Below, in pieces: positions 18,644-58,476 of a DNA stretch of 64,000 nucleotides. Source of the DNA: an uncultured Gammaproteobacteria bacterium (GTDB taxonomy: Bacteria; Patescibacteriota; Patescibacteriia; JACQRZ01); assembly GCA_964621085.1 (NCBI GenBank), contig CAZUKY010000001.1:22951-86950 (forward strand), read 5' to 3'. The position numbers were made by a program, and so were the translations under genes. Every line of letters starts with the position of its first letter. Within the stretch, counting starts at the first letter, position 1. Under the pieces are notes generated by a model. That model was not told the DNA's origin and did not search any database. It saw nothing but the letters and a program-made list of their open reading frames with translations.

Positions 18644-18780
18644 ATGGACAATATATCATTATTGCTTACCGTTCTTGCATCCACTATCTATGCGAAGGGG
18701 AATTTCTCCATAGATATCAAGTGCAAGAACGGCCGCCCCACCTCAGAAGGCGAGGCGGCCGCGATGTCAGTACTTCGGCG

Positions 18781-19494: not shown

Positions 19495-19736
19495 GTTTCC
19501 CTCCCCTGAGAAACGCGAGGCATCCGCTTACCTACTCGTGCGGTTTCAACCGCGGGACATCCGCCAGTCGCCTCTTACCCGACGGCAGCGATGATGGAGA
19601 CGCTTGCCCATCTCCCGCACCAGTGCCGTCGGATAAGACTGAAATTATAGAGAACAATAAAATACATGCCCTATCCATGAGCATATATCTCATTAATATC
19701 AAACAAACCCATGAATGTCAAGGGATTGAGCCGCCC

Positions 19737-25651: not shown

Positions 25652-26047
25652 CTAACTCTTTATATTTTGGAGAATTTCCTTCAGTTGATTTGGATTTCTT
25701 TTAATATCCACTTGAATGAATTTATCCACACAGCCATAGTGAATCAATTCATTCATCTCTGCCGTAAGGAGGATATCATCTATCCAGCGAAAGTCCTTTG
25801 TGAAGTCGATCACTTCAGTCTTGAGAGATCGCCAATACGTGGGCCTTATTCTCTGGAGAAGGTTTTCAGTCTCAGGCGGCAGTATGCGTAGCAGGTATTC
25901 AGTAGCTCTATTCTCTCCACCTCGAGAGTGAGTCGTCAGCCAATAGCAGTCGTAATGAGCTGTGACTTCTTCCAAAAATTCGATTGCATGTGCAGTAGGT
26001 CGGCCATGAGTAACCAGTACGCCGTCAATGTCGAGATAGATGTTCAT
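25652..26047 (-). CDS. HAD-superfamily small phosphatase-like protein (5'(3')-deoxyribonucleotidase / PNK-phosphatase-like)
   Basis: Motif I YLDIDGVL, motif II WLTTHS, motif IV RWIDDIL. Confidence 0.5.
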   Translation of the reverse strand: MNIYLDIDGVLVTHGRPTAHAIEFLEEVTAHYDCYWLTTHSRGGENRATEYLLRILPPETENLLQRIRPTYWRSLKTEVIDFTKDFRWIDDILLTAEMNELIHYGCVDKFIQVDIKRNPNQLKEILQNIKS

Positions 26048-26101
26048 GTCTAAGATGCAAATCAAATCTTCTTCCTCAGAATTTCAGTAACACGAAATGC
26101 T

Positions 26102-26371
26102 TCATATCCGCTTGATAATACGCTGCCTTTTTAATTCATCAGTAAGACGCATTGCCCTCGCATACCCAATCTTGAATTTCCTTTGAATCCAATTAGAATC
26201 GACTTTTTTAACTTTTCCACCTACTACATCCTCCTTAATCCTGCGGATCAAGTATGGAAATTCATAACTGTCGCGAAGTGCTTCTATCTTCAAAGTTAGT
26301 TCCTTCATGTTACCCTCCGCACTCTTAAGAAGAGCAATAAGCTCCCTCGTAGTTTTATCGGAGTTATTCAT
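26102..26371 (-). CDS. Small protein with an FtsK-gamma-like winged-helix DNA-binding domain
   Basis: C-terminal IQRKFKIGYARAMRLTDELKRQRII closely parallels the FtsK gamma consensus LQRRLRIGYNRAARLIEQME. Start taken at MNNSD, 10 nt after the res C-terminal ORF stop. Confidence 0.5.
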   Translation of the reverse strand: MNNSDKTTRELIALLKSAEGNMKELTLKIEALRDSYEFPYLIRRIKEDVVGGKVKKVDSNWIQRKFKIGYARAMRLTDELKRQRIIKRI

Positions 26372-26381
26372 ATAAATACAT

Positions 26382-27023
26382 TTAACCAGAATAGACACTA
26401 GTAGCAATTTCGGTTTCGAAAACTCTTACAACTTCTGCAAAAGATTTTACCTTGTACTTCTCCCAATCTTCCTGTCGGATATAGAGCGCGTTATATGTCA
26501 TCCTGCCTTGCCTATTGTTCACGTCATCGCACCATTGCTTGAGCCGTTCAAATTTTAATCGATCATCCTCCTCCTCGCGCCCTTTTGTCTCGACAATATA
26601 AACCGTCTTGTCATCCGTTTTCACAAAAAAGTCGGGATAATATGTTGCGATAAATCCTTCAGAATTCTTATACTCAATTCTCAACGCGCTTGCCTCTTTG
26701 TTTTGGAAATTCTTTGAGAAGGAAACGACATCTTGCTCGTCACAACTCTCGAGGAAGCTTGCGAATTCAAGCTCGAAATCGCTATCTCCGACAATCTTAT
26801 TGAATACTGATTTTTTTGGGATAACGCATGCTTTATCATTGACTACAAATGGTCGAGCGTCACTGACTTTGATGAAATTCCTGATTTCGGTATCGCCTTT
26901 ATCCTGCACCGTAAGATCGTTAATAGCTTTCTTAAACGACTCCCTGATAAGCCGCACGTATTCGGGCTCTGAAAGATTCCGTAAAATGTTCAGGTCTGAA
27001 AGATCCACTTGCCCCTCAAACAT
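26382..27023 (-). CDS. res: Type III Res C-terminal PD-(D/E)xK endonuclease domain ORF, in frame with res and separated from it by a TGA
   Basis: YYPDFF...VYIVETKG matches the PD...ExK nuclease motif. The reading frame continues without interruption from the stop of the upstream helicase ORF (19 sense codons, then ATG). Confidence 0.6.
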   Translation of the reverse strand: MFEGQVDLSDLNILRNLSEPEYVRLIRESFKKAINDLTVQDKGDTEIRNFIKVSDARPFVVNDKACVIPKKSVFNKIVGDSDFELEFASFLESCDEQDVVSFSKNFQNKEASALRIEYKNSEGFIATYYPDFFVKTDDKTVYIVETKGREEEDDRLKFERLKQWCDDVNNRQGRMTYNALYIRQEDWEKYKVKSFAEVVRVFETEIATSVYSG

Positions 27024-27080
27024 ATAACTCTGTATAAACTCTTTTACCTTGCCAAAAAGAATGTCATAGCATCCGAATAA

Positions 27081-29102
27081 TCAAAGCTCGCGCATGATCG
27101 CCTGAACAAAAAAGCCAATTGCACTCTGATGATTTGGTTCTATATCGCCAGTTAAAATTGTCGTATGGTGAGTTTTCTCATCCACGACATCTTTGAAAAC
27201 AATTTCTCGCTTCTCTGTTGCGGTAAATGTTTTTATATTGACTCTCTTATTCCTAAATGATGCAACATCGAGCTCTGAGAGATTTTTATATTCTCTCTGA
27301 ATGCGGGGCGACATGACAGGCACCTCGATATCCAGCTTTTCAATATCTTTCTTAGGGTTATCTCTATCCACCTCAACCACGAGCGGGGCGATCGGCTTTG
27401 AGCCATGACCCATCGCCTTCTTCTCAAGAATAACGCCTTCGCCCTTGATCGATTCCACAAAATCCATGAATGCCTGCGTTCCCAAAACGCTGACATATTC
27501 TTGAACGTCTTCTCGCCCGAAGAACATTCTTCGCAAGCCCCGCCCAAGGGTCTGTTCGGGTAAAATCTTCGAGTCAGCGGCAAAGGGACGAAGACCAACA
27601 ATAGTGGTCACGTTTTTCACATCCCAGCCCTCTTTGAGCATAAGAACGGAGACAATCACCTTGTAGGGACTTTCCCAACTATCGATATCATTTGCTTGTT
27701 TTCTCAGTAGTGCGAGCTCTTCTTTATTCTTCCCCGTCACGCTTTCAGATATCTCACCGCTTCTATTGGTATGAATCGTCAAAACACTGCCTTTCAAATC
27801 AGCAAAAGTATTTTCAATATATTGGGCAACCTCATCACAGTTCTTCGTATCATCGGTCATGATGAAAAGAATCGACTTCTTGCCCATTGTCCTCAATGTC
27901 TCGAACGTTTTTCTCCACTCCTCTATACCAAGGTTAATGTAGTCCCTGTAGCGTTCACTAAAAAGCGCGCTCTGGTTTTCTTTGAGCTTTCCCTGACTCG
28001 CTGCATCGGGTACGACCGGATTTTTTACTATTCTCTGGTGGATCGCTTCGACAAGAGGATAATCCGAAATCGTCTGCACAAAAATTGAGCCGTCATTCTT
28101 CTTTGGCGTAGCAGTAACGTCCAACTGTAAGGCCAATCCAGAGCCTTTCTGCTTGAGCCGGTTGTCGATGTCTTGAATAGACTTAAACCATGCCATCTTT
28201 TCATCATGCAGATGATGGGCCTCATCATTGATTACTATCAATTCGTCTATATCTCGCACTATCGAGCCTAAATCTAGCGTTGAATCATTTGTCTTTGTGA
28301 CAGGCTTGTTGCCGAGAAAATATGCGGTCGTATCCTTGTCTTCATAACTTGCTTCTTTGACATCTCCCTCAAAAACTCGATGAATATTGGTCAAAAAAAT
28401 ATTTCCTGTTTCTGAGATATTGTGTAAGTCATCCTGCAGGTGCAGTGTTATTTGAAAATCGTCCTGCCAGTTTTGTCCTTGGTAACCGTTATCCGGTAAG
28501 ACGGGATCGTTGAAAAATATTTTCAATCCTTCAAAGTCATTTTTTATTCTGTCAAAAACAATCACGTTGGGCGCAATCAGGAGAAAGTTTTTTGCAAGTC
28601 CTGAATCCTCTTCGAATTTTTTATGGAAGTATGCCCATGCGACAAGAAGGCTCATGACCTTTGTTTTGCCTGCACCGGTTGCCATCTTAATGACAAAGCG
28701 TAGCCATTCTTCAGTGAACATCTGAGGACTCAACACGCCCGTTGAGTTGTAACGAATGAGGTCGTACTTATCCTTTACCTCTGCAACGTCATAGAGCCAG
28801 ACAACTGTTTCCAAAGCTTCTCTTTGGGCAAAGTAGTACCGAAAATTAAATGACGTGCCATCTTGGTTGTATTGGATATGATCTTCCTTGAACCACCAAT
28901 TTAGCAGTGCCTTTGATGTACCGCTTGCTCCCTCATAGTTTTTATCACGCCATTCTTTTACTCGTTTGCGCAGGTCGGCGACTAATGGAGGGAGTAACTT
29001 ATCGTAGCCCTTCTCACGCAGGTCCTCATCAGCAGGAAACCACCTGATACTTGGATCAAGAATTTCATAGGGATCTTTTGGGAAGTCTTTATGTAGAGCC
29101 AT
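27081..29102 (-). CDS. res: Type III restriction enzyme Res subunit, SF2 helicase/ATPase portion
   Basis: Walker A ATGAGKT, DEAHH box, and motif VI QTLGRGLR. Located downstream of a Type III mod gene. Ends in TGA at 27081-27083. Confidence 0.8.
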   Translation of the reverse strand: MALHKDFPKDPYEILDPSIRWFPADEDLREKGYDKLLPPLVADLRKRVKEWRDKNYEGASGTSKALLNWWFKEDHIQYNQDGTSFNFRYYFAQREALETVVWLYDVAEVKDKYDLIRYNSTGVLSPQMFTEEWLRFVIKMATGAGKTKVMSLLVAWAYFHKKFEEDSGLAKNFLLIAPNVIVFDRIKNDFEGLKIFFNDPVLPDNGYQGQNWQDDFQITLHLQDDLHNISETGNIFLTNIHRVFEGDVKEASYEDKDTTAYFLGNKPVTKTNDSTLDLGSIVRDIDELIVINDEAHHLHDEKMAWFKSIQDIDNRLKQKGSGLALQLDVTATPKKNDGSIFVQTISDYPLVEAIHQRIVKNPVVPDAASQGKLKENQSALFSERYRDYINLGIEEWRKTFETLRTMGKKSILFIMTDDTKNCDEVAQYIENTFADLKGSVLTIHTNRSGEISESVTGKNKEELALLRKQANDIDSWESPYKVIVSVLMLKEGWDVKNVTTIVGLRPFAADSKILPEQTLGRGLRRMFFGREDVQEYVSVLGTQAFMDFVESIKGEGVILEKKAMGHGSKPIAPLVVEVDRDNPKKDIEKLDIEVPVMSPRIQREYKNLSELDVASFRNKRVNIKTFTATEKREIVFKDVVDEKTHHTTILTGDIEPNHQSAIGFFVQAIMREL

Positions 29103-29835
29103 ATATCTTTTTATGAATGGAGTTTATAAAGCAAGATCCAATTTCTAGTATATTTCTAGTATATTTAACCATATCTTGCGCGGTTCTCTGTCGTCTTTTT
29201 TTCTGACCACCTAAACTTGCGTCCATCTCATGAATAATCTCGTTCCGAACATCGAACGCTTTTTTAGTAACCTCGGACTCTTTCAGGATCTCCGCCGGAG
29301 TAATAGCAAAATTTGTAGCAACTTTTAATAACTGATCGCGGGATTGCAGACTATCGTCTACTAAACTTTTTTTTAGGGCATCTATAAGATAATCTCTGGG
29401 ACTTGAGCTCGCTAAAATGGAGGCAACCCACGTTGTGTCAATTAGTAATTTTTCCTTTTCGTCAGAGCTTCCTTTTTTCATTCTTCGATCTATGAATTTT
29501 TGAAACTCTTGTTGTGCGCCGGCCTCTTTATCGATAACTGTCGAGAGAGAATCCTTAACAAGTTGTTTTACAACCGAGTCTAACCCGGAGCATGAAAAAA
29601 CCAACATAGCACGCAAAAGGTCCTGCTCCGCATGTGTTGTGCTCCCCTTACTACCCCTTCTATTTGCTTGGAATAATTTATAGAACTCATTTACTGAATT
29701 AATGGCATGCTCAAAAACTATTTTTGCATTTTTTATTTCACGGAAATCTCCAGAAATAAGTTCTGTTACCTTAATTTCTTTAAATTCTTTTTTTGACATA
29801 TCGGGATCACTAACTGTCTTGTTCAATATCAACAT
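29089..29835 (-). CDS. Hypothetical alpha-helical protein with an RNxxxH motif (candidate HEPN-like domain)
   Basis: VRNEIIHE near the C-terminal third matches the HEPN Rx4-6H (RNxxxH) signature. Overlaps the res start by 14 nt and the upstream small gene. Assignment is by motif only. Confidence 0.4.
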   Translation of the reverse strand: MLILNKTVSDPDMSKKEFKEIKVTELISGDFREIKNAKIVFEHAINSVNEFYKLFQANRRGSKGSTTHAEQDLLRAMLVFSCSGLDSVVKQLVKDSLSTVIDKEAGAQQEFQKFIDRRMKKGSSDEKEKLLIDTTWVASILASSSPRDYLIDALKKSLVDDSLQSRDQLLKVATNFAITPAEILKESEVTKKAFDVRNEIIHEMDASLGGQKKRRQRTAQDMVKYTRNILEIGSCFINSIHKKIYGST

Positions 29836-30127
29836 CAGTAAACCCTAGTGGTAGTGGTGAGTATCCGGCATGACCCGGATAGCCAGGATAACCCGGATAG
29901 CCAGGATAACCCGGATAGCCAGGATAACCCTTGTAGGGATTATAATGCTTCTTATACAGGCGATTGTTCGTGAAAATATGTCCTAAATAATTACCGTTAG
30001 TATCGACAACTTCAAAGGAATCCCAGGGTAGCCAACCAATCCAACTCCCATTTGTATTATAAACATATCTTCCTACTCGGAAGGCAATCCACTCGCCTGA
30101 AGAATTATAAAGATATTGAAAATTCAT
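29810..30127 (-). CDS. Small protein with an N-terminal aromatic/Trp-rich repeat (YxYNxxGxWIxx) and a C-terminal (GYP)n tail
   Basis: 105 aa. The GYPGYPGYPGYPGYPG tail is encoded by the 18-bp tandem repeat. The start ATG overlaps the mod stop (TAATG), implying translational coupling. Confidence 0.45.
   Translation of the reverse strand: MNFQYLYNSSGEWIAFRVGRYVYNTNGSWIGWLPWDSFEVVDTNGNYLGHIFTNNRLYKKHYNPYKGYPGYPGYPGYPGYPGYPGHAGYSPLPLGFTDVDIEQDS
29873..29930. repeat. Tandem repeat, 18-bp unit ACCCGGATAGCCAGGATA x3.2, in frame within the small GYP gene
   Basis: Three perfect copies plus a partial one, read directly in the sequence. Confidence 0.85.
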
Positions 30128-32211
30128 TATACAAGCACGTCTATTACCTTTGTTGTATCATTGCCGAAGATATCTACCACCTTCACGGCAACTTTATAGG
30201 CTCCTTTTGATACCTCTTTTGCTGCAGATACAAGCTCAAGGTTTCTATTTTTCTTTGTTCGGAAGCTTTGCCACTCGTTATCAAAGATATAATCACCCGT
30301 CCAAATCTCTTTCTCTTCATCACCGTCTATAATTTTGATGATCTCTTTTCTATCAGCAAAGTTAAAATCTACCGCCCAATAGTCAATCCAATCGCTCCAT
30401 TTCTTTGTAAGTATCTCCGGCTCGCCTATGGTGCCGTCCTTGTTCTTTGATATTTTTTTAACCTGTCCATTCTCAATAATAATTTTTGACCCACCAGACT
30501 TTAATGATTCTTGTATCTCTCCTGAGTCGTCTTGGCTGTAAAAAACCGAAAAATCTGTTAACTCGATGGCTAATTCTTTACTACCTGCCCGACCCTTGAT
30601 AATTGGCTTCGCCTCGATGAATGCCACGTCATAAAATTTGACTTGGCCTTTTTCTACGGCTTTTCTGTCAAACACTTCTCTTGGGATTACGCGGAAAGCA
30701 ATGTCGATTCCTCGCTTTTGGTAGCTTCCGAAATCTATACCCATTTCATAATCAAAACCGAGCACATCAACTTTTGTAATGCCTTTTTCTTTGCATTCGG
30801 TCGCAACTTCCTCGATAAATTTGGAGGATACTGGGAGATTGATTGGACCAACTACAACCAAGCGATCTCGTTTTTTACCGACAACATTTACAAACGAGTC
30901 GACACGCTCTGCTTTATACGCTGAAAGAATAAGATCTACATATTCTTTTTCTTTTCTCTCTGCCTGTTTTGCTCGTTCTTCTGCTCGCAGATCACTATTT
31001 AGCGTAAGAAAGTTTTCTCGCTCATAGCGACCAACATTCAATACCTCAAAAGCACGGAAATTTTGCCCAGACTTCTTTAGCTCGCGCTGAACACCAACCA
31101 TTCGTTTTCGCGTTGTATGTATAGAAAACTTTCCCAGATCGGACCCGATCCATTTTCTACCAAGCTTTTCGGCAACAGCAAGAGTTGTGCCAGAACCACA
31201 AAAAAAATCTGCAACTAAATCACCTTCATTTGAAGATGCCTTAATAACACGTTCAAGTAACGCCTCGGGCTTTTGAGTCGGATAATCAACTCTTTCCCTT
31301 GAATCGGATTCAGTGCCTAGTCCATACACATCATCCCAAACATCGCGACAAATTGAATTGTGGTACCACATTTTCTTTTCCTCATCCCAAATTTCAGGAT
31401 ATTTCTCATTGAAATTGTATTTCTTTGCCTGGTAGGACTTGTAGTATTGAGTATTGAATGAAAAATCTGAGGTTCTCGAATAAAAAAATATGGCGTCATG
31501 CTTTCTGGCAAAGAATCCTTTGCTTACTCCACCCGTTTTATAGCTCCAAATTATTTCATTTTTAAAATTATCTTTACCAAAAATTTCATCTAGCGCTAAT
31601 CTAAGGTAACCACTTACGCGATAATCGCAGTGAACATAGATACTGCCATCCTCTGCCAACAATCCATGCATTAGCTTTAGTCGTTCATAGATCATAGCGA
31701 TAAAGCTATCTGCCCCTTTTCCCCATGTATCTCTATAGGCTATTTCTTCAATCACTGACGGCTTCTTAGTAAAACTCTCCGCGTCATCGCCGTCGCCAAT
31801 TTTTATATCCATCGAAAAATCCGCTCCGACGTCAAAAGGAGGGTCGATATAAATCAATTTTAAACCGCCCTGCGCTTCGATTTCCTTTCGCAAAGGACCA
31901 TTTTTCAGTGATGAGAGTATTAGCTTATTGTCGCCCCAGATGAGCTTATTCGTCCACCCAGTTATTTGTCGGCCCGAGGTATCAAAAAGTGTATTTTGTC
32001 TGCCGATTTTTCCATCGCCTCGTGGCTCGTCTATTTGCTCAATCACCTGGAATGGCAAGACAACGTTTGTAACTTCATTTGTTTTTCCATTCCAGACAAG
32101 CTCTACCTCTCGATCGTCACCGAACAATAAAAAGCGATATTTATCTGGAAGTGGCTTACCCACCTCAAGATATCTAATAACATCTCGTTTTTCATTATCA
32201 GTTAGATACAT
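30127..32211 (-). CDS. mod: Type III R-M Mod subunit (beta-class N6-adenine DNA methyltransferase)
   Basis: Motif [13 protein letters not shown] precedes motif [10 protein letters not shown] (a beta-class permutation). A central variable region is present. 694 aa, with a res gene downstream. Confidence 0.85.
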
Positions 32212-39200: not shown

Positions 39201-40724
39201 ATGTCCCCTTTTTCTTATGTGATCGGGCTGGAGGTTCATGTTCAGCTCAAGACCAAATCTAAGATGTTCTGCCGCTGCTCGAACGAGGGCGAGAACAAAG
39301 AACCCAATACGACCGTCTGTCCGGTATGCATGGGACATCCCGGAACATTGCCGGTTGCCAACAGTACAGCGATCCGCTGGTCGACAAAGATGGCACTTGC
39401 CCTGAACTGCACGATCGCGGAGTGGAGCAAGTTTGACCGGAAGAACTACTTTTATCCTGACCTTCCGAAGGGGTATCAGATATCGCAGTACGATCAGCCG
39501 ATCGGCCGCGAGGGCTACCTTGACATTCGCGGGGCGCACGATCCGGTGAGTAACCGGGCGGAGGCACGCATTCGTATCAATCGCCTCCATCTTGAGGAAG
39601 ACGCGGCAAAACTTCTGCACGCGCCGGTCGGGAACGCGAGTCTTGTCGACTTTAATCGCGCCGGCACGCCGCTGATGGAGATCGTCTCGGAGCCCGATCT
39701 GCGCTCTCCCGCAGAAGCAAAGGCATACCTCCAGGAGATCCGTCTTCTGGCACGGTATTTGGACGTCTCCAGCGCCGACATGGAGAAGGGGCATCTGCGT
39801 TGCGATGCCAATATTTCCATCAAGTTCGATTATGAGGGGACACCCGTCTGGACGCCAATTTCCGAGATAAAAAACCTGAACTCGTTCCGCGCAGTTGAAA
39901 AGGCACTGGAGTACGAGGGTCAGCGACTCTATGACGAATGGATATCCGGCGGAGAGGTGCGCAATCGCACGCACAAAATAACCGTGGGTTGGGATGACCA
40001 GCGCCAAGCGACCGTATTGCAGCGCACCAAAGAAGAGGCGCATGACTACCGCTACTTTCCGGAACCGGACATTCCCCCGCTTCGCTTCACAGCAGATACG
40101 ATCGAGGAGCTGCGCGCGGAAATTCCCGAGCGCCCCTCAGCGAAACGCGAGCGTCTCGGCGCTGAGTTCGGCATTGCGGCCGATGATGCCCGCATCCTTG
40201 TCGAAGATCGCATGCTCGCCAACTATTTCGAAAAATGCGCATCCGAGCTGGACGCGTGGCTCTGTTCCCTTGAGGCGTGCGATGAGGCATTCAAGGCAAA
40301 AACGTATCGGTCGCTCTCTACGTGGCTGATCAACAAATTTACCGCGTCTCTCGAAGCGGAAGGCACCGAGTTGCGCGAAACGAAGGTGACACCAGAGAAC
40401 TTTGCCGAGCTGATCGCGCTGATCGCGACGGATAAAATCAATAGCACCGCAGCGCAAACTGTCCTCTCTGAGATGATACGGACCGGCGCAGAACCGGATC
40501 ACATCATTGAGGAAAAAGGCTTGGCACAGGTTACCGATGCGAGCGCGCTTGATGCAGTTATTGCGACTGTTATCGCCGCGCATCCTGATGCGGTGGAAAA
40601 AATACAGGCTGGCAAAACATCGACGATCATGTTTTTGGTCGGACAGGTTATGCGAGAAATGAAAGGAACAGCACAGCCTGAGCTTGTAAAAAAAATGTTG
40701 GAGGAACGCTTAGGCACGAAATAA
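39201..40724 (+). CDS. gatB: Asp-tRNA(Asn)/Glu-tRNA(Gln) amidotransferase subunit B
   Basis: N-terminal IGLEVHVQL, a CxxC zinc motif, and a GatB/YqeY C-terminal domain. Confidence 0.93.
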   Translation: MSPFSYVIGLEVHVQLKTKSKMFCRCSNEGENKEPNTTVCPVCMGHPGTLPVANSTAIRWSTKMALALNCTIAEWSKFDRKNYFYPDLPKGYQISQYDQPIGREGYLDIRGAHDPVSNRAEARIRINRLHLEEDAAKLLHAPVGNASLVDFNRAGTPLMEIVSEPDLRSPAEAKAYLQEIRLLARYLDVSSADMEKGHLRCDANISIKFDYEGTPVWTPISEIKNLNSFRAVEKALEYEGQRLYDEWISGGEVRNRTHKITVGWDDQRQATVLQRTKEEAHDYRYFPEPDIPPLRFTADTIEELRAEIPERPSAKRERLGAEFGIAADDARILVEDRMLANYFEKCASELDAWLCSLEACDEAFKAKTYRSLSTWLINKFTASLEAEGTELRETKVTPENFAELIALIATDKINSTAAQTVLSEMIRTGAEPDHIIEEKGLAQVTDASALDAVIATVIAAHPDAVEKIQAGKTSTIMFLVGQVMREMKGTAQPELVKKMLEERLGTK

Positions 40725-40746: not shown

Positions 40747-41706
40747 TCATCCGTTCCCTTTCCGTAAAAAATGCCGCACGTGAGAGAGCGCATCTTTTTC
40801 GTTCCGGATCCAACAGATATCGGGATTTCGGCGCCACCAGGTAAGCTGCCGGCGGGCAAAGTCATGGGTCGCGAATGCAAGTCGCGCAAGTGTTTCCTCA
40901 AGCGCCGCGCAACGCTCACGCGCCGTCAATGACGCCTCTTTTTCGAGATATTCAGAGAGAAAACGGTACTCAAGGCCCAGTGAAGAGAGCCATTTTTTTG
41001 ACACACCCATCGCGTGAAGCCTGCGCACCTCTCCTATTAGGCCTTTTCGCGTACGAGTTTTGATGCGCTCGTCGATGCGAGCGTAGAGCGTTTGGCGCGG
41101 CAGATCGATGCCGAGAATCAAAGATTGATACCGATCTCTTCCCTGCTGTTTCTGCGCTACGAATGAGCGGCCTGTCGCGCGCACGACCTCAAGGGCTCGG
41201 ATGAGACGGCGACGATTGCATACATCGATTGCGGCATACGACTGGGGATCCGACTCGGCAAGCAGCGCAGCAAGGCGATCCGTTGATTTCTTTTCGAGCT
41301 GCTCACGGTATGCCGGGTCAAAGACGGCCGGCGGCAAATCGAAATTTCGGACCACAGCATCAATATAGAGAGCTGTTCCTCCGACGAGGAACGGAACCTT
41401 TCCTCGTTTCGAAATGCCAAAAATCGCCTCATCCGCCTTTATTTTATAATCAGCGAGCGTGAACGGCTGCTGCCCGCCGCGCCAGCGCTTCGGCGGCAAT
41501 GCGACATCCAGGAGGTGATGTGGAACTTCTCGCCGCTCGCGTTTTGTCACCTTTCCGGTTCCCAGATCAAGACCGGTATAGACCTGTCGCGAGTCAGCCG
41601 ATACGATCTCACCGTTGAACTGCTTCGCAAGCCGGATTGCGAGATCCGACTTGCCGGATGCTGTCGGGCCAAGGAGAACGACAAGTTTAATCTGCGAGCG
41701 ATCCAT
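40747..41706 (-). CDS. miaA: tRNA dimethylallyltransferase
   Basis: P-loop GPTASGKS and the MiaA core. Overlaps the miaB stop by about 20 nt. Confidence 0.9.
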   Translation of the reverse strand: MDRSQIKLVVLLGPTASGKSDLAIRLAKQFNGEIVSADSRQVYTGLDLGTGKVTKRERREVPHHLLDVALPPKRWRGGQQPFTLADYKIKADEAIFGISKRGKVPFLVGGTALYIDAVVRNFDLPPAVFDPAYREQLEKKSTDRLAALLAESDPQSYAAIDVCNRRRLIRALEVVRATGRSFVAQKQQGRDRYQSLILGIDLPRQTLYARIDERIKTRTRKGLIGEVRRLHAMGVSKKWLSSLGLEYRFLSEYLEKEASLTARERCAALEETLARLAFATHDFARRQLTWWRRNPDICWIRNEKDALSHVRHFLRKGNG

Positions 41707-43033
41707 ACAAGACCCACTCAACTGCCCGATCGATATGAACAGAGACGATCTGCCCAATGAGTGATGGTTCACCTCGAAAATTGACGCGCTTCATTTCTCG
41801 GGAGTTGCCGCTCGCAACGCCCTTCTCGCACGAGTCGACAAGCACCGATACGGTTGTGCCGACGAATGCCTGATTTTTTCGCAAAACTGTCTCCTCCATC
41901 AGTCGCTGCAGTGCGTGCCACCGTCGCTTCTTTTCGTGTCGCCCCACATCATCCTTGTACATCCTGACCGCCGCAGTTCCTGACCGGACCGAGTACATCG
42001 CAGTGTAGGCGATATCAAAATCGCACACGCGGTACAGATCCAGGGTTTCTTCAAACTGCTCTTCGGTTTCGCCGCAAAATCCTACGATAATATCGGTACC
42101 CAGGGCGATAGTTGGTGCCAGTTCTCGGAGCTTTGCGATGCGTTCGATATAGTACTCGCGCGTATAGGGCCGGTTCATCCGCTTTAATACCTCATTGCTG
42201 CCGCTTTGCAGAGGCAGATGCAAGTAATTGACGTGCTTTGGCAATGTGAGAGCCGCAAGAGTCTGGTCATCCATGTACTGGGGATGCGCGGCGGTGAAAT
42301 GGATTCTCTGAATGCCGTCGATCTGATTAAGCTCCCACATGAGTGCAGCAAAGGCGTTTTTCGAATGATCGTATGGATTTTTCGGACTCAAATGCTCCTT
42401 ATCTGGCGGATTGTACAGATTGACGGTCTGTCCCAAGATCGTGATTTCAACCGTACCGGCAGCAGCGCGATCTCGCGCCTCGGCCAACACATCGGCAAGC
42501 GGTCGGTCTTTCTGACGGCCCCGCGAGTACGGAACAACACAGTAGGTGCAAAACTTATTGCAGCCGTTGCTTATGGGAATAAATGCCTGGAATGCCGTCT
42601 GGTACGCCGGCCTGATTTTGAGATAGTGGTCGTATTCGGACTCGGCCCGTAAAGTGGCCTGATCGACAAGATCCGACCGGATCTCGCTGAGGCGCTGCGG
42701 AAGGTAAATTAACTCGTCAGTCGGGAAAAAGAGGTCAACAGAGGGCAGCCGCTCGCGGATCTTGCCATCCGTATCGCGACCGGCCATGCAGCCAGTTACG
42801 GCAACAATCAGATCCTTTTTTTTCGCCTTTAGCGTTTCCAAGTTGTGTGCGATGCCATACATCCGGTCTTCCGCCATCTGGCGAACCGAACAGGTGTTGT
42901 AGACAAGAATATCGGCAGACTCATCCGAGTCCGTTTCCTCCGCGCCAAGTCGGCGCAAAAGGGCTGCAATGCGCTCGGAGTCAGACTTGTTCATCTGGCA
43001 GCCGAATGTCGTGATCTTAAAAAATGATGACAT
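41687..43033 (-). CDS. miaB: tRNA-2-methylthio-N6-dimethylallyladenosine synthase (radical SAM methylthiotransferase)
   Basis: MTTase N-domain, radical SAM CNKFCTYC motif, and a TRAM C-terminal domain. Confidence 0.9.
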   Translation of the reverse strand: MSSFFKITTFGCQMNKSDSERIAALLRRLGAEETDSDESADILVYNTCSVRQMAEDRMYGIAHNLETLKAKKKDLIVAVTGCMAGRDTDGKIRERLPSVDLFFPTDELIYLPQRLSEIRSDLVDQATLRAESEYDHYLKIRPAYQTAFQAFIPISNGCNKFCTYCVVPYSRGRQKDRPLADVLAEARDRAAAGTVEITILGQTVNLYNPPDKEHLSPKNPYDHSKNAFAALMWELNQIDGIQRIHFTAAHPQYMDDQTLAALTLPKHVNYLHLPLQSGSNEVLKRMNRPYTREYYIERIAKLRELAPTIALGTDIIVGFCGETEEQFEETLDLYRVCDFDIAYTAMYSVRSGTAAVRMYKDDVGRHEKKRRWHALQRLMEETVLRKNQAFVGTTVSVLVDSCEKGVASGNSREMKRVNFRGEPSLIGQIVSVHIDRAVEWVLYGSLAD

Positions 43034-43720
43034 ATTTGCTTATACTAACAAATGCAGGAAGTATTGTAAATGAAGAAGAGGCCAACCGCAGAAACTGCAG
43101 CTGGCCTCAGGGGAAGCCCTGGTTGGGCGTCCCCGGCGGCGCGCATCGGAAACGTGCGAGTGCTATCAGCAATGGTTGATCAGTCGAGAGAATCCTTGGA
43201 GGGCTCACGACGATGATCGACCGTGCCGAGGCACTGCAGCTCCGGTCCTTCCAGCCCGCCCGAAAGGTGTTTGAATCCGTTCGGGGAATGGGGACTGTCA
43301 ATTGAAAGCGCCGACTCTGCGCATTTTTCATCCGTTCGGATGTGTTCGCGTCCAGAGGAACGCGTTTTGTCCGAAGAGACTCGCTGCTCGATCCCGTGCA
43401 AGCAGCAGGCAGTAAAAGGCAAACTGCCTTCGAAACGCAGGTGCTCTGCCCGACCGCAGTTGCGATCGATTCAGAACTACAGGAGTTAACCTGTATTTGC
43501 GGGCTCCACCATGGGTAGATGGCAAGAACCTGCGACGCTCCGTGAGGGAGACCTTCTCCACACCGCAGAGCGGAGTGTCGATTGTCCGAACCTTGAAGGA
43601 AGACGTGAAATAATAATAACGCCAAAGCGAATTTCAGTCAATAAAACGACAATGGCAAATTTCACTTTTATTTATAACAAAAATTGAGAGTCTGGATTTA
43701 CCTGATAAAAGTTATCCACA

Positions 43721-45529
43721 CTACCTCTTTAAAGTCTGGTGCAATTCATCGAGAAAATGTGCGATGCACTCCTCCAATTTCACGTCCTTGATCTCCTTGC
43801 TGCCGCGTGCGCGGAGCGCGATGGTCTGCAGATCCGACTCTTTATCGCCGATCACGATCATATACGGCACTTTTGACTTCTCAGCTTTGCGGATCTTGTA
43901 CCCGACCGTCTCATTGGACTCGTCAACTTCGACGCGGATACCGTTTTCCTGCAAACGCAAGGCAAGCTTTCTGCTCGACTCCAGATGCGAAAGCCCAACG
44001 GGCACGATCGCAGCCTGTACGGGCGAGAGCCAGAACGGAAAAGCGCCGGCAAAGTGCTCGATGATGATTCCCAAGAATCGCTCCGTGGATCCGAGAATGG
44101 CGCGATGAATGACGATAGGCCGCTGCTTGGTGCCGTCGGCAGCCGCATACTCGCACGAGAACCGCTGCGGAAGATTATAGTCAAGCTGAATGGTGGAGAG
44201 CTGCCACTCCCGTCCGATCGCGTCCTTGAACATAAAATCAAGTTTCGGGCCATAGAACGCCGCCTCACCAACTGCAACCTCAACCGGCATTCCCTTCTCC
44301 GCAACGACCCGCTTCAGAGCGGCTTCGGCGGTTTCCCAATACTCGTCAGTACCGATATACTTTTCGCGGTTCTGGGGGTCATGCACAGAAACCGTCACGC
44401 GAAAGTCCGTCAGTCCGAATACAGCGTATACGTCTTTGATCATATCGAGCATGAGAGCAATTTCTCCCTCGATCTGATCCGGCGCGCAAAACACGTGGCA
44501 GTCGTCCTGCGTCAGCGCACGCACGCGCGTCAATCCGGAGAGCTCGCCCGACTTTTCATACCGATAGTTTGTTGTTGTACAGGTATACCGGACCGGCAGA
44601 TCCCGATAACTGTGCGGCAGCGTGTTGTACAGCATCATGAAGTGCGGGCAGTTCATCGGCTTGAGGTAGTAGCGATCCTCGTCAAGAACCATTGGCGGAT
44701 ACATCGCATCGTACTTGTCCAGGTGTCCCGAAATCCGATACAGGGGCTCTTTTGTGATATGCGGAATCCAGATCGGAACGTATCCACGCTTCTCCTGCAT
44801 CTCGATGACAAGATTCTCGACGAGCCTGCGCAAGAGCGCACCCTTTGGATAAAAAAGTGGCAGTCCCGGTCCGATCTCATCGATGATAGTAAAGAGTTCG
44901 AGCTCGCGGCCCAGCTTTCGATGATCGCGTTTCTCTGCCTCCTCGAGTAAGGTGAGATGGGCTGCAAGCTCATCTTTTGTCTGAAACGCGTATCCGTAGA
45001 TGCGCGTGAGCATTGGATTTTTCTCATCGCCGCGCCAATAGGCGCCCGCAACCGATTTCAGTTTGAAAACACCAATGTCTCTCGTACTCGAAACATGCGG
45101 TCCGCGGCACAAGTCAACAAAGTCGCCAGTGCGATAGAGGGACACGATAGCGTTCTCCCCCATGCCAGAAACGGCAGACTCTTCTTCTCCGATACGTGTC
45201 GTTCCGTGTTTTTCAATATCTTCAAGCAGTTGTACCTTAAAACCCTGCCCCAGGGACGCCATGATCTCCTTCGCCCTGCCAAGCGGGAGCTCCTCGCGCT
45301 CAAAAGAAAGGTTTTCCTTTTTAATCCGCTCCATCTCTTTCTCGATCTTTCCAAAATCATCAGTCGAGATGGGTGTCGAAGTTAAAACATCGTAGTAAAA
45401 ACCGTTCTCCACAACCGGCCCCACGCCAAACTGAGTACCAGGATACAGTCTCTGAAGGGCAGCGGCGAGCAAATGCGCAGCCGAATGGCGCATGGTTTCG
45501 ATTGGGGAGGCTTCTTTTTCACTTGACAT
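43721..45529 (-). CDS. thrS: Threonyl-tRNA synthetase (lacks the N-terminal TGS domain)
   Basis: Editing-domain HxxxH (HSAAHLL), class II catalytic motifs, and an anticodon-binding domain; 602 aa. Confidence 0.93.
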   Translation of the reverse strand: MSSEKEASPIETMRHSAAHLLAAALQRLYPGTQFGVGPVVENGFYYDVLTSTPISTDDFGKIEKEMERIKKENLSFEREELPLGRAKEIMASLGQGFKVQLLEDIEKHGTTRIGEEESAVSGMGENAIVSLYRTGDFVDLCRGPHVSSTRDIGVFKLKSVAGAYWRGDEKNPMLTRIYGYAFQTKDELAAHLTLLEEAEKRDHRKLGRELELFTIIDEIGPGLPLFYPKGALLRRLVENLVIEMQEKRGYVPIWIPHITKEPLYRISGHLDKYDAMYPPMVLDEDRYYLKPMNCPHFMMLYNTLPHSYRDLPVRYTCTTTNYRYEKSGELSGLTRVRALTQDDCHVFCAPDQIEGEIALMLDMIKDVYAVFGLTDFRVTVSVHDPQNREKYIGTDEYWETAEAALKRVVAEKGMPVEVAVGEAAFYGPKLDFMFKDAIGREWQLSTIQLDYNLPQRFSCEYAAADGTKQRPIVIHRAILGSTERFLGIIIEHFAGAFPFWLSPVQAAIVPVGLSHLESSRKLALRLQENGIRVEVDESNETVGYKIRKAEKSKVPYMIVIGDKESDLQTIALRARGSKEIKDVKLEECIAHFLDELHQTLKR

Positions 45530-45536
45530 AAGATCC

Positions 45537-45565
45537 TTGACAGGTTTTTATGGATGTGTTATGCT
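45537..45565 (+). promoter_or_regulatory. Sigma70-like promoter (TTGACA, 17-nt spacer, TATGCT), divergent from thrS; a second -10 (TATAAT) lies at 45577-45582
   Basis: Consensus -35 and near-consensus -10 with a 17-nt spacer. There is no plus-strand CDS downstream before the strong terminators. Confidence 0.5.
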
Positions 45566-45721
45566 TTTGACTGCACTATAATGCATAAATGGCATGGTAT
45601 GGATTGGCGGGGCACCGCTCAGGTCCATGGACTTGTCTCCATGCGCATGCCGTGCAAACAAGTGTACACTATGAGTCGGGTCAATCCTGCTTCCCTGATT
45701 CATCTGCGGCTGTACGCCGCA

Positions 45722-45776
45722 CCGCCCCCATCCCCACCGGGATGACAGACAGGACTGCGAAGGGGCGGTTTTTTTA
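45722..45776 (+). terminator. Terminator-like structure: CCGCCCC / GGGGCGG outer stem enclosing an inner hairpin, followed by T8
   Basis: Outer stem at 45722-45728 and 45762-45768; inner hairpin CATCCC-CACC-GGGATG; then TTTTTTTT. Confidence 0.5.
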
Positions 45777-45781
45777 AATCA

Positions 45782-45810
45782 AAATAAGGGGTTATTTCCC
45801 CTTATTTTAT
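45782..45810. terminator. Bidirectional rho-independent terminator
   Basis: 8-bp stem ATAAGGGG / CCCCTTAT flanked by A-runs and T-runs. Serves the minus-strand gene ending at 45843. Confidence 0.55.
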
Positions 45811-45842
45811 GCTATTTTTTACAAATTGCAACCCATGACTCT

Positions 45843-56955: not shown

Positions 56956-58476
56956 TCAGTTCTCTGTCTTTGGTCGCAGCGTCGGAAACAAGATGACCTC
57001 TTTGATATTGGCGTTGTCGGTCAGCAGGCATACCAACCTATCGATTCCGATACCCAAACCCGCTGTCGGGGGCATGCCGTACTCAAGCGCGTGCACATAA
57101 TCCATATCAATGCGATGCGCCTCTTCATCCCCTGCCTCGGCCGCTTTTTGCTGGTCGCAAAATCGTGCAAGTTGATCTTGCGGATCGTTAAGCTCAGAAA
57201 ACGCGTTGACAACCTCGACTCCGCCGAAGACGAGCTGAAAGCGCTCGACAAATCGAGGATCATCTGCCTTCTTCTTCGAGAGCGGAGAAAGCTCGATCGG
57301 GTGGTCGATGAGAAACGTGGGCTGCATTGTTTTTGAGACGACATACTTCTTCAACAGATCGTCAAAGATCTGTCCGCGTGTGACGTTTTTTTCAACATCA
57401 ACCCCGAGCTTGCCGGCCTGCTTTTTCAGCTCCGCATCCGAGACATCGGCAATATCAATGCCTGTTGCATCCGCAATCGCGTCGCGGAATGAGACGCGCG
57501 GAAAAGGATTGGCGAATGAGAGCGTCTGACCGCGCGCGGCAAACTCGAGCCCTCCGTGAACCGCAAGCACGACATGGCGGAAGAGATTTTCCATCATGTT
57601 CATGAGTAGGTGGTAGTCCGCATACGCTATATATGCCTCCAGCATGGTGAACTCCGGATTGTGCGTATGGTCGATCCCCTCGTTCCGGAAGCAGCGCGCA
57701 AACTCGAAGACGCGCTCATATCCGCCGACGATAAGTCGCTTCAAATAAAGTTCCGGCGCAATCCGCAGATACATGTCGATATCCAGCGCGTTGTGATGGG
57801 TCAAAAACGGCCGCGCCGTCGCTCCGCCTGGAATAGACTGCAACACCGGCGTCTCAACCTCCAAAAAACCTTCATCTTCGAAAAAGCTGCGAATCGTCTT
57901 GATGACAGTCGCACGATGCTGAAAAACCTTTCGCACTTCCTCATTGGCGATGAGATCCAGATACCGCTGTCGGAAGCGTGTCTCGATATCTGAAAGCCCA
58001 TGCCACTGCTCCGGGAGCGGCAAAAGCGCTTTGGAGAGGATCCGAAAGCCCGGGTCCGATCCGACCTCGAGCGTTTGCTCGCCCGTCTTGGTGAGAAATA
58101 GTGTTCCGGTTGCCTCAATAAAGTCTCCCAAATCAAGGAGATTTTTAATGACGGAGAACTGCTCGTCGCCTACCGCATCCCGACGGAAAAAAAGCTGAAA
58201 CTTACCAGTCCCGTCTTCGATTACGACAAACGCCGACCCGCCGTGCTGCCGAATACTTCGTACGCGGCCCGCAAGGGTTACGACGGTGCCCTCCGCACTC
58301 CAGGTCTCGAACCACTCGTGCGCGCGCTCGCACGCCGCCGTCCGCCCCGACCGCGCCGGATAGGGGTCCATTCCCAACTTCTTCAGCTCTTCCAATTTTT
58401 GAAGTCTCACTCCCCGCTCCTCTGGTACCATAGGATACAGAATCGTATTAGAAACAAGGACAGAAATTTCCTTCAT
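56956..58476 (-). CDS. lysS: Lysyl-tRNA synthetase (class II)
   Basis: OB-fold anticodon-binding domain and class IIb catalytic motifs (FRNEGID..., GGVE...). The start may be at 58431. Confidence 0.93.
   Translation of the reverse strand: MKEISVLVSNTILYPMVPEERGVRLQKLEELKKLGMDPYPARSGRTAACERAHEWFETWSAEGTVVTLAGRVRSIRQHGGSAFVVIEDGTGKFQLFFRRDAVGDEQFSVIKNLLDLGDFIEATGTLFLTKTGEQTLEVGSDPGFRILSKALLPLPEQWHGLSDIETRFRQRYLDLIANEEVRKVFQHRATVIKTIRSFFEDEGFLEVETPVLQSIPGGATARPFLTHHNALDIDMYLRIAPELYLKRLIVGGYERVFEFARCFRNEGIDHTHNPEFTMLEAYIAYADYHLLMNMMENLFRHVVLAVHGGLEFAARGQTLSFANPFPRVSFRDAIADATGIDIADVSDAELKKQAGKLGVDVEKNVTRGQIFDDLLKKYVVSKTMQPTFLIDHPIELSPLSKKKADDPRFVERFQLVFGGVEVVNAFSELNDPQDQLARFCDQQKAAEAGDEEAHRIDMDYVHALEYGMPPTAGLGIGIDRLVCLLTDNANIKEVILFPTLRPKTEN

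Follow-up and report, generated by a model that had tools for sequence, protein, structure and literature searches.

An Orphan Candidate Leader or Non-Coding RNA Between thrS and miaB in a Patescibacterial Genome

The thrS–miaB intergenic gap

The stretch of DNA analysed here, hereafter the window, comprises 64,000 nucleotides of contig CAZUKY010000001.1, and the subject of this work is the 687-bp intergenic gap (43034–43720) lying in it between the stop codon of thrS and the start of miaB. Both flanking genes are read from the minus strand. The upstream one, thrS (43721–45529, stop codon at 43721–43723), encodes a threonine-tRNA ligase of 602 amino acids, the homologues of which carry the domains PF07973, PF00587, and PF03129; the downstream one, miaB (41687–43033), encodes a tRNA methylthiotransferase of 448 amino acids with PF00919 and PF04055 and is followed by miaA, recognised by its IPPT domain. 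Best matches of MiaB and ThrS belong to metagenome-assembled genomes labelled as Uhrbacteria or Patescibacteria (49–70% identity), and judging by this protein similarity the source organism is a Candidatus Uhrbacteria-like member of the Patescibacteria, or candidate phyla radiation (CPR). CPR bacteria have small, densely packed genomes, and according to a crude map of open reading frames (ORFs) this gap is the longest gene-free stretch of the window. Since an independently assembled Logan contig (L161, SRR5011273) is 100% identical over 8974 bp, the 687-bp stretch did not arise as an artefact of a single assembler.

The first-pass annotation, made from the letters of the sequence, had described the region as about 560 bp long and 65–70% GC. 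Apart from the length, which is underestimated, the quoted interval has a GC content of 52.2%, equal to the 52.3% of the window as a whole; the structured core (43068–43606) amounts to 57.7%, with 63% in its richest 200 nt, and the thrS-proximal 114 nt (43607–43720) to 29%. The recognition of a long non-coding gap at this place proved correct, as did the opinion that the two long ORFs located here (43107–43625 on the minus strand and 43223–43489 on the plus strand) are implausible as proteins. Codon-usage scores for ORFs of the gap are near −0.08, as for spurious ORFs, compared with 0.18 ± 0.04 (minimum 0.10) for real genes, and none of them has a match in Pfam. In the minus-strand ORF, which would encode 172 amino acids, the GC content at second codon positions is 0.56 vs. 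0.41 in real genes, and the only start codon is a TTG situated upstream of the promoter-like site P1 (see below) and devoid of a Shine–Dalgarno sequence; phmmer returned 0 matches for this ORF among 1.84 billion representative proteins. A query made by concatenating all six frames had 0 matches in a collection of 5.8 billion protein clusters, gene calling on the Logan contig predicted nothing in the gap, and every gene found at this junction in relatives was compared with the gap by tBLASTn with nothing better than E = 0.3. Neither the residual protein similarity nor the codon periodicity by which a pseudogene is recognised was found. Decay of a protein-coding gene, proposed initially as one of the options, with the 172-codon frame or another one as its remnant, is therefore very improbable, even if an open frame of this length in 687 bp is somewhat above chance (a few percent by estimate), is collinear with its neighbours, and occupies a junction where some relatives do have genes. 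Convincing ORFs for a leader peptide or a small toxin are likewise lacking in the gap.

Folding stability and predicted transcription signals

The excess of secondary structure ascribed to the region at first inspection is borne out by its folding energy. The whole gap has a minimum free energy (MFE) of −266.9 kcal/mol on the minus strand (z = −10.5) and −245.9 kcal/mol on the plus strand (z = −5.6; 20 shuffles each), and for the core alone z equals −6.8 and −3.3, respectively (100 shuffles). Minus-strand folds of 150 nt within the gap range from z = −3.7 to −8.7, the window-wide background for folds of this size being −0.3 ± 1.2 with the first percentile at −3.4. If G.U pairs are forbidden, z for the core is weakened from −6.8 to −4.8 on the minus strand and passes from −3.3 to −4.2 on the plus strand; G.U pairs are thus placed at helix-compatible positions on the minus strand only, and this is the pattern expected from RNA-level structure of the minus strand, not from DNA palindromes. 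Beside helices common to both strands, G.U pairs are mildly asymmetric (11 vs. 7), and in sum the assignment to the minus strand is made by several moderate indications with no single decisive result. The abundance of perfect hairpins, which had attracted attention to the region, was overestimated: Watson–Crick hairpins with a stem of at least 6 bp number 3 compared with 1.2 expected, a count equalled by 47 of 300 shuffles, and the excess stability is provided by longer imperfect helices with G.U pairs. Among the hairpins quoted as examples, CATCCG-AAC-GGATG and GGCAGT...ACTGCC are both present in the gap, GGGGAAGCCC/GGGCGTCCCC contains one mismatch, and GTCCATGGAC is located at 45623, outside of it.

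Read from 5′ to 3′ on the minus strand, the gap begins with an AT-rich spacer (43642–43720) directly 3′ of the thrS stop, which belongs to the 29% GC segment and contains no strong terminator for thrS. It is followed by P1 (43613–43641), a sigma-70-type promoter-like site TTGACT-17-TATTAT with 10 of 12 consensus matches, from which, assuming standard spacing between the −10 element and +1, transcription would start near 43606. Downstream of this point three helical domains are predicted, the first of them from MFE and centroid folds. The 5′ domain (43443–43606) is made up of four hairpin elements, TACAGG/CCTGTA and TCGATCGC/GCGGTCGG among them. The central domain (43316–43441) is closed by the helix CUGCGU/GCGCAG and carries three hairpins, namely, AGGCAGU...ACUGCCU, GCUGCUUG...CGAGCAGC, and a long arm with CGCGUUC-CUCU-GGACGCG. 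The 3′ domain (43136–43314), closed by CGGCGC/GCGCCG, is composed of a short arm (43295–43245) and a long irregular arm (43244–43147). One more hairpin, GGGGACGCCC-AACCA-GGGCUUCCCC (43110–43134, 9 of 10 positions paired), directly precedes an intrinsic-terminator-like element (43068–43108), in which the 14-bp stem GAGGCCAGCUGCAG-UUU-CUGCGGUUGGCCUC is followed by the U-rich UUCUUCAUUU. This hairpin (43108–43078) is the strongest of the gap; its U-rich tail exists on the minus strand only, and two G.U pairs of its stem turn into A.C mismatches on the plus strand. A 9-nt repeat AGCUGCAGU (43241–43233 and 43102–43094), indistinguishable from chance, is a potential competitor for the terminator's 3′ arm.

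The last element, P2 (43042–43070), is a second promoter-like site, TTTACA-17-TAGTAT, with 9 of 12 consensus matches and a TG ahead of the −10 hexamer; it is positioned 8 nt upstream of the miaB ATG. P1, the terminator-like hairpin, and P2 are all on the minus strand and are ordered as a transcription unit and then miaB. Taken together, folding and signals suggest that the gap probably specifies a heavily base-paired minus-strand RNA of ~540 nt confined to a narrow lineage. No Shine–Dalgarno sequence precedes miaB, and a leaderless or near-leaderless mRNA initiated from P2 is plausible because other genes of the window also combine the lack of this sequence with −10-like hexamers near their starts. 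Most of the window genes inspected have no Shine–Dalgarno sequence, and hexamers such as TATAGA, TAGAAT, GATAAT, and TAGTAT lie a few bases upstream of several start codons (the starts inspected include gatB at 39201, miaB at 43033, and others, e.g., 11888, 13759, and 56956–58476), which suggests that leaderless or near-leaderless mRNAs may be widespread in this genome.

Strong structure is not limited to this gap. Intervals 19495–19736 (z = −5.7) and 18644–18780 (z = −5.1) contain very stable long hairpins, 242 nt with −102 kcal/mol and 137 nt with −57.7 kcal/mol, respectively, both without Rfam matches. The 313-bp gap upstream of thrS (45530–45842) is strongly structured on both strands (z = −4.8 to −6.4) and holds a terminator-like hairpin AAAAUAAGGGG...CCCCUUAUUUU together with the palindrome at 45623 mentioned above; as the upstream gene abuts thrS in two relatives (L162 and L163), this gap appears to be lineage-specific as well.

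The junction in related genomes

In relatives with ThrS 64–69% identical, genes follow in the order dnaE–hypothetical gene–thrS–miaB–miaA–gatB–L1–L11–nusG–secE with gatB on the other strand, and it is the thrS–miaB junction that varies. The two genes are separated by 6 bp in L162, by 63 bp in L176, and by 78 bp in L173, where a promoter-like site TTGATG-17-TATACT is found, and overlap by 8 bp in L163 and L164. In other loci they are parted by a gene for a protein of 498 amino acids without Pfam match (L167–169; L167:2619–4115), by a gene for a secreted-looking protein of more than 2100 amino acids (L165 and L166; L165:11932–18465), or by an oppositely directed gene for 275 amino acids (L174 and L175; L174:3091–3918), and in more distant relatives (L006, L008, and L010–L012) by two genes. 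None of these junction genes resembles the gap. Finding a normal gene here in relatives, with the gap as its remnant, had been named beforehand as an outcome that would speak against a structured RNA; genes are indeed present in some relatives, but they are unrelated both to each other and to the gap. Since thrS and miaB either abut or are parted by unrelated genes, the 687 bp are best read as a lineage-specific non-coding insertion into an ancestrally tight junction, and the junction itself, on the same comparison, as a hot spot of gene gain and loss. Gaps longer than 280 bp are almost absent from the relatives' loci and from the window, and such rarity makes mere tolerance of junk DNA unlikely.

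The closest relative was found by a query combining the C-terminus of ThrS with the N-terminus of MiaB, which was aimed at partial proteins on short contigs and gave nothing closer than 78%. This contig (L171; JGI 3300076145, Ga0620836_013012) encodes a ThrS C-terminus 78% and a MiaB 71% identical to those of the window, and its thrS–miaB gap is 435 bp long (L171:804–1238). A perfect promoter TTGACA-17-TATAAT (845–873) is placed there 41 nt after the thrS stop, a stem with a U7 tract 13 nt upstream of the miaB ATG, and the gap folds with z = −4.6 in the sense and −0.07 in the antisense direction, so that layout and strand are the same as in the window. As no second promoter-like site was detected in the L171 gap, the predicted structured RNA would have to be a miaB leader in that genome. 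It also contains a mini-ORF of 18 codons, MDVCPVCFRNEGCVCELC (1066–1122), rich in Cys and Phe and preceded by a Shine–Dalgarno sequence, which ends ~70 nt before the terminator-like stem and could represent a leader peptide; 7 of the 17 codons after its start begin with U. The i6A37/ms2i6A37 modification concerns only tRNAs reading UNN codons. Because the U-starting codons of the mini-ORF hint in this direction, leaders of this kind might sense the decoding of UNN codons by ms2i6A37-dependent tRNAs, the feedback loop thus drawn being speculation. That both gaps represent a fast-evolving class of long (0.4–0.55 kb) structured leaders, which in Uhrbacteria-like CPR bacteria place miaB–miaA under attenuation control, seems improbable.

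The search for homologues of the gap relied on synteny and covered 80 genome and 80 metagenome loci around MiaB relatives and 17 more retrieved via ThrS/MiaB homologues, 178 fetched loci being searched in total. From them nhmmer, blastn, and six-frame tBLASTn recovered nothing but Logan contig L161, which is identical. In phage and plasmid collections blastn produced noise only, and two exact-pattern scans of viral contigs gave 0 matches and one chance match (L170, a GGCAGT-repeat hairpin). Single-sequence covariance models of the central (R1) and 3′ (R2) domains, run with default filters against 40 loci of relatives, had no match, and unfiltered searches, made for R1 in L171 and the window and for R2 in L171 only, detected nothing elsewhere.

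Interpretation and comparison with known systems

Consensus matching and thermodynamic prediction place a promoter, a structured leader, and a terminator upstream of miaB and on its strand, i.e., in the layout of an attenuating leader. We lean, tentatively and with somewhat less than even confidence, to the explanation that the element is a structured leader or insulator acting in cis on miaB–miaA. Transcription would proceed from P1 (43641–43613) in the direction of both flanking genes to yield the RNA of ~540 nt with three helical domains, the end of which would be set by the strong terminator-like hairpin and its U-rich tail (43108–43068), 35–45 nt before the start of miaB. Transcripts from P1, as well as read-through from thrS, would mostly stop there by attenuation, and P2, just before the ATG, would supply the leaderless miaB mRNA. 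A role in cis is favoured because of the position and strand of the element, because of the parallel in L171, and because it is not conserved in the way that an RNA acting in trans through a defined fold should be.

A number of observations weigh against this explanation. The gaps of the window and L171 share no sequence detectable by blastn or nhmmer, their Smith–Waterman scores and common k-mers stay within the range of shuffles, and the domain models of the window score at noise level in L171 (8.3 bits for the central and 5.6 bits for the 3′ domain); the common layout could thus have come about by convergence or by chance, the junction being a variable one. Homologues were found in none of the collections, nucleotide collections being covered via flanking proteins or exact patterns, so that homologues elsewhere would escape; covariation support is consequently absent, and homologues with compensatory changes, which define a conserved structured RNA family, did not emerge from these searches. 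The domain model is a single-sequence fold prediction, promoters and terminator are consensus matches, and transcript ends are deduced from them. Recognisable aptamer or T-box motifs were not seen on the minus strand, nor does its fold contain GNRA- or UNCG-capped hairpins. A length of ~540 nt is large for a bacterial leader, an active P2 would free miaB expression in this genome from any need for the upstream RNA, and spacers rich in hairpins may be typical of the genome as a whole.

A serious rival, unlikely though we consider it, is a functionless spacer left by a lineage-specific insertion or rearrangement, in which hairpins are terminators or incidental and transcription is noise. High variability of the junction among relatives, the orphan state of the sequence, and the hairpin-rich nature of other gaps in the window are all in line with it; strand-specific, G.U-dependent excess stability is nevertheless not expected of neutral DNA and is seen in two species, gaps above 280 bp are otherwise nearly lacking in these genomes, and no protein trace is left in any frame. 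Only slightly less likely than the spacer is a stand-alone gene for a trans-acting structured RNA of ~540 nt, for instance, a protein-binding scaffold or sponge unrelated to miaB, which landed at a permissive junction and left miaB to be expressed from P2. It would account for the well-defined promoter-like site and strong terminator-like hairpin bracketing the core, for P2 only 8 nt from the miaB ATG, and for strand-specific folding, and long, relatively GC-rich gaps are the typical setting in which large orphan structured RNAs of bacteria are found by the GC-IGR approach (PMC8632094, PMC11109978). However, neither sequence nor predicted fold is kept at this site in L171, the window holds no second copy, Rfam offers no relative, GNRA and UNCG loops are missing, and no loop motif is repeated (a single pair of 15-nt repeats is near chance by estimate).

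That the element belongs to a known RNA class (OLE/GOLLD/ROOL-type large RNA, RNase P RNA, tmRNA, T-box, riboswitch, or group I/II intron) but is too divergent for the models appears most improbable, notwithstanding the size, which fits several of these classes, and the tRNA-related neighbours (thrS, miaB, miaA, and gatB). The search of both strands by cmscan, recommended in the first-pass annotation, was made with Rfam 15 (4227 families) and gave no gathering-level match in the 64-kb window; even at E ≤ 10, the gap with its margins (42900–43850, both strands) yielded two noise matches, to a human long non-coding RNA fragment and to Fibro-purF, the latter with 16 bits vs. a threshold of 60. 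ARAGORN reported no tRNA and no tmRNA gene in 64 kb. RNase P RNA, tmRNA, and an intron remnant, all suggested at first on account of size, are rejected on these results: RF00010 and RF00011 have no match and neither the P4 strands GGAAAGUCC...ACAGAA nor the conserved regions CR-I to CR-V were seen on reading, in agreement with the missing hallmarks of RNase P RNA and tmRNA noted previously, and no intron model appears at E ≤ 10, while the 14-bp terminator-like hairpin, with its UUU loop and no bulge, is unlike group II domain V with its AGC triad, 2-nt bulge, and GNRA loop. T-boxes and known riboswitches were also discarded, as Rfam gave sub-threshold noise only in the window and in L171 and no T-box-like sequence was read. 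The absence of the element from the junction of relatives speaks against any such class as well. What survives of the initial list is an unclassified structured RNA, which can now be assigned a strand, the minus one, and candidate signals for its start and end.

An element acting at the DNA level, i.e., a replication origin, recombination site, or miniature transposon, is as hard to credit. It is suggested by the consensus-perfect DnaA-box 9-mer TTATCCACA directly after the thrS stop (43712–43720, plus strand), adjoining the 29% GC stretch, and by better-than-chance folding of both strands. Nevertheless, when up to one mismatch is allowed, the window shows no enrichment of boxes (13 vs. 8.7 expected; one perfect and one with 1 mismatch in the gap), GC skew does not switch, and gene direction is the same on both sides, so that an origin is rejected. 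Perfect palindromes are not enriched, and stability depends on G.U pairs of one strand. A miniature transposon, insertion sequence remnant, or tandem repeat is dismissed too, since convincing terminal inverted repeats, target duplications, and a second copy in the window were not found; weak arms of 11 nt (82% complementarity) lie ~30 nt inside each end of the gap. A second perfect DnaA box occurs at 25722–25730. Separately, a low-GC island extends over 26001–32000 (40–42% vs. ~53% elsewhere) with minus-strand genes for 673, 248, 105, and 694 amino acids and may have been acquired horizontally.

To our knowledge, almost nothing is known about RNA-based regulation in CPR bacteria, and the gap gives this group a concrete candidate RNA, lineage-specific and either regulatory or simply non-coding, accompanied by the same layout in L171. 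On present evidence it is an orphan candidate leader or non-coding RNA and not the discovery of a new RNA class, its present value being that of a flagged target for transcriptomics. If transcription and termination proceed as predicted, the element would illustrate how an inserted RNA module, composed of a terminator and a new leaderless promoter, can split and rewire an operon; if it is a spacer only, it cautions that single-sequence folding scores and reasoning from a "long GC-rich gap" are insufficient to identify a functional RNA.

Among known systems, RNase P RNA and tmRNA are similar to the gap element in length and tRNA-related surroundings and differ from it in everything by which they are recognised, i.e., Rfam or ARAGORN matches, conserved-region motifs, and presence at the junction of relatives. 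Large orphan RNA classes such as OLE, GOLLD, ROOL, and raiA have many homologues, covariation, and conserved motifs (PMC8632094, PMC6429828, PMC11109978). The gap element is comparable to them in occupying a long gap of a compact genome, in a core ~5 points richer in GC, in strong thermodynamic structure, and in promoter-like and terminator-like signals of its own, and is unlike them in having no homologue, no GNRA/UNCG loops, and no match to their Rfam models. With attenuating 5′ leaders (T-box, riboswitch, and leader-peptide types) it shares the position upstream of an operon on the same strand, a promoter-like site, a structured RNA, and a GC-rich hairpin with a U-tract near the start codon; in contrast to them, it has neither an Rfam match nor a recognisable aptamer, specifier, or T-box sequence, exceeds their usual length two- to fivefold, shows no conservation between the window and L171, and is followed by a second promoter-like site downstream of the terminator. 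As to leader-peptide attenuators, the 18-codon mini-ORF is a feature of L171 only, the window having no convincing leader peptide. Finally, terminator/promoter insulators between once co-transcribed genes need ~100 bp vs. 687 bp here, which leaves ~470 nt of additional strand-specific structure unaccounted for, and the likeness to them consists in a terminator-like element after thrS, a promoter-like site before miaB, and a junction at which relatives have the two genes translationally coupled.

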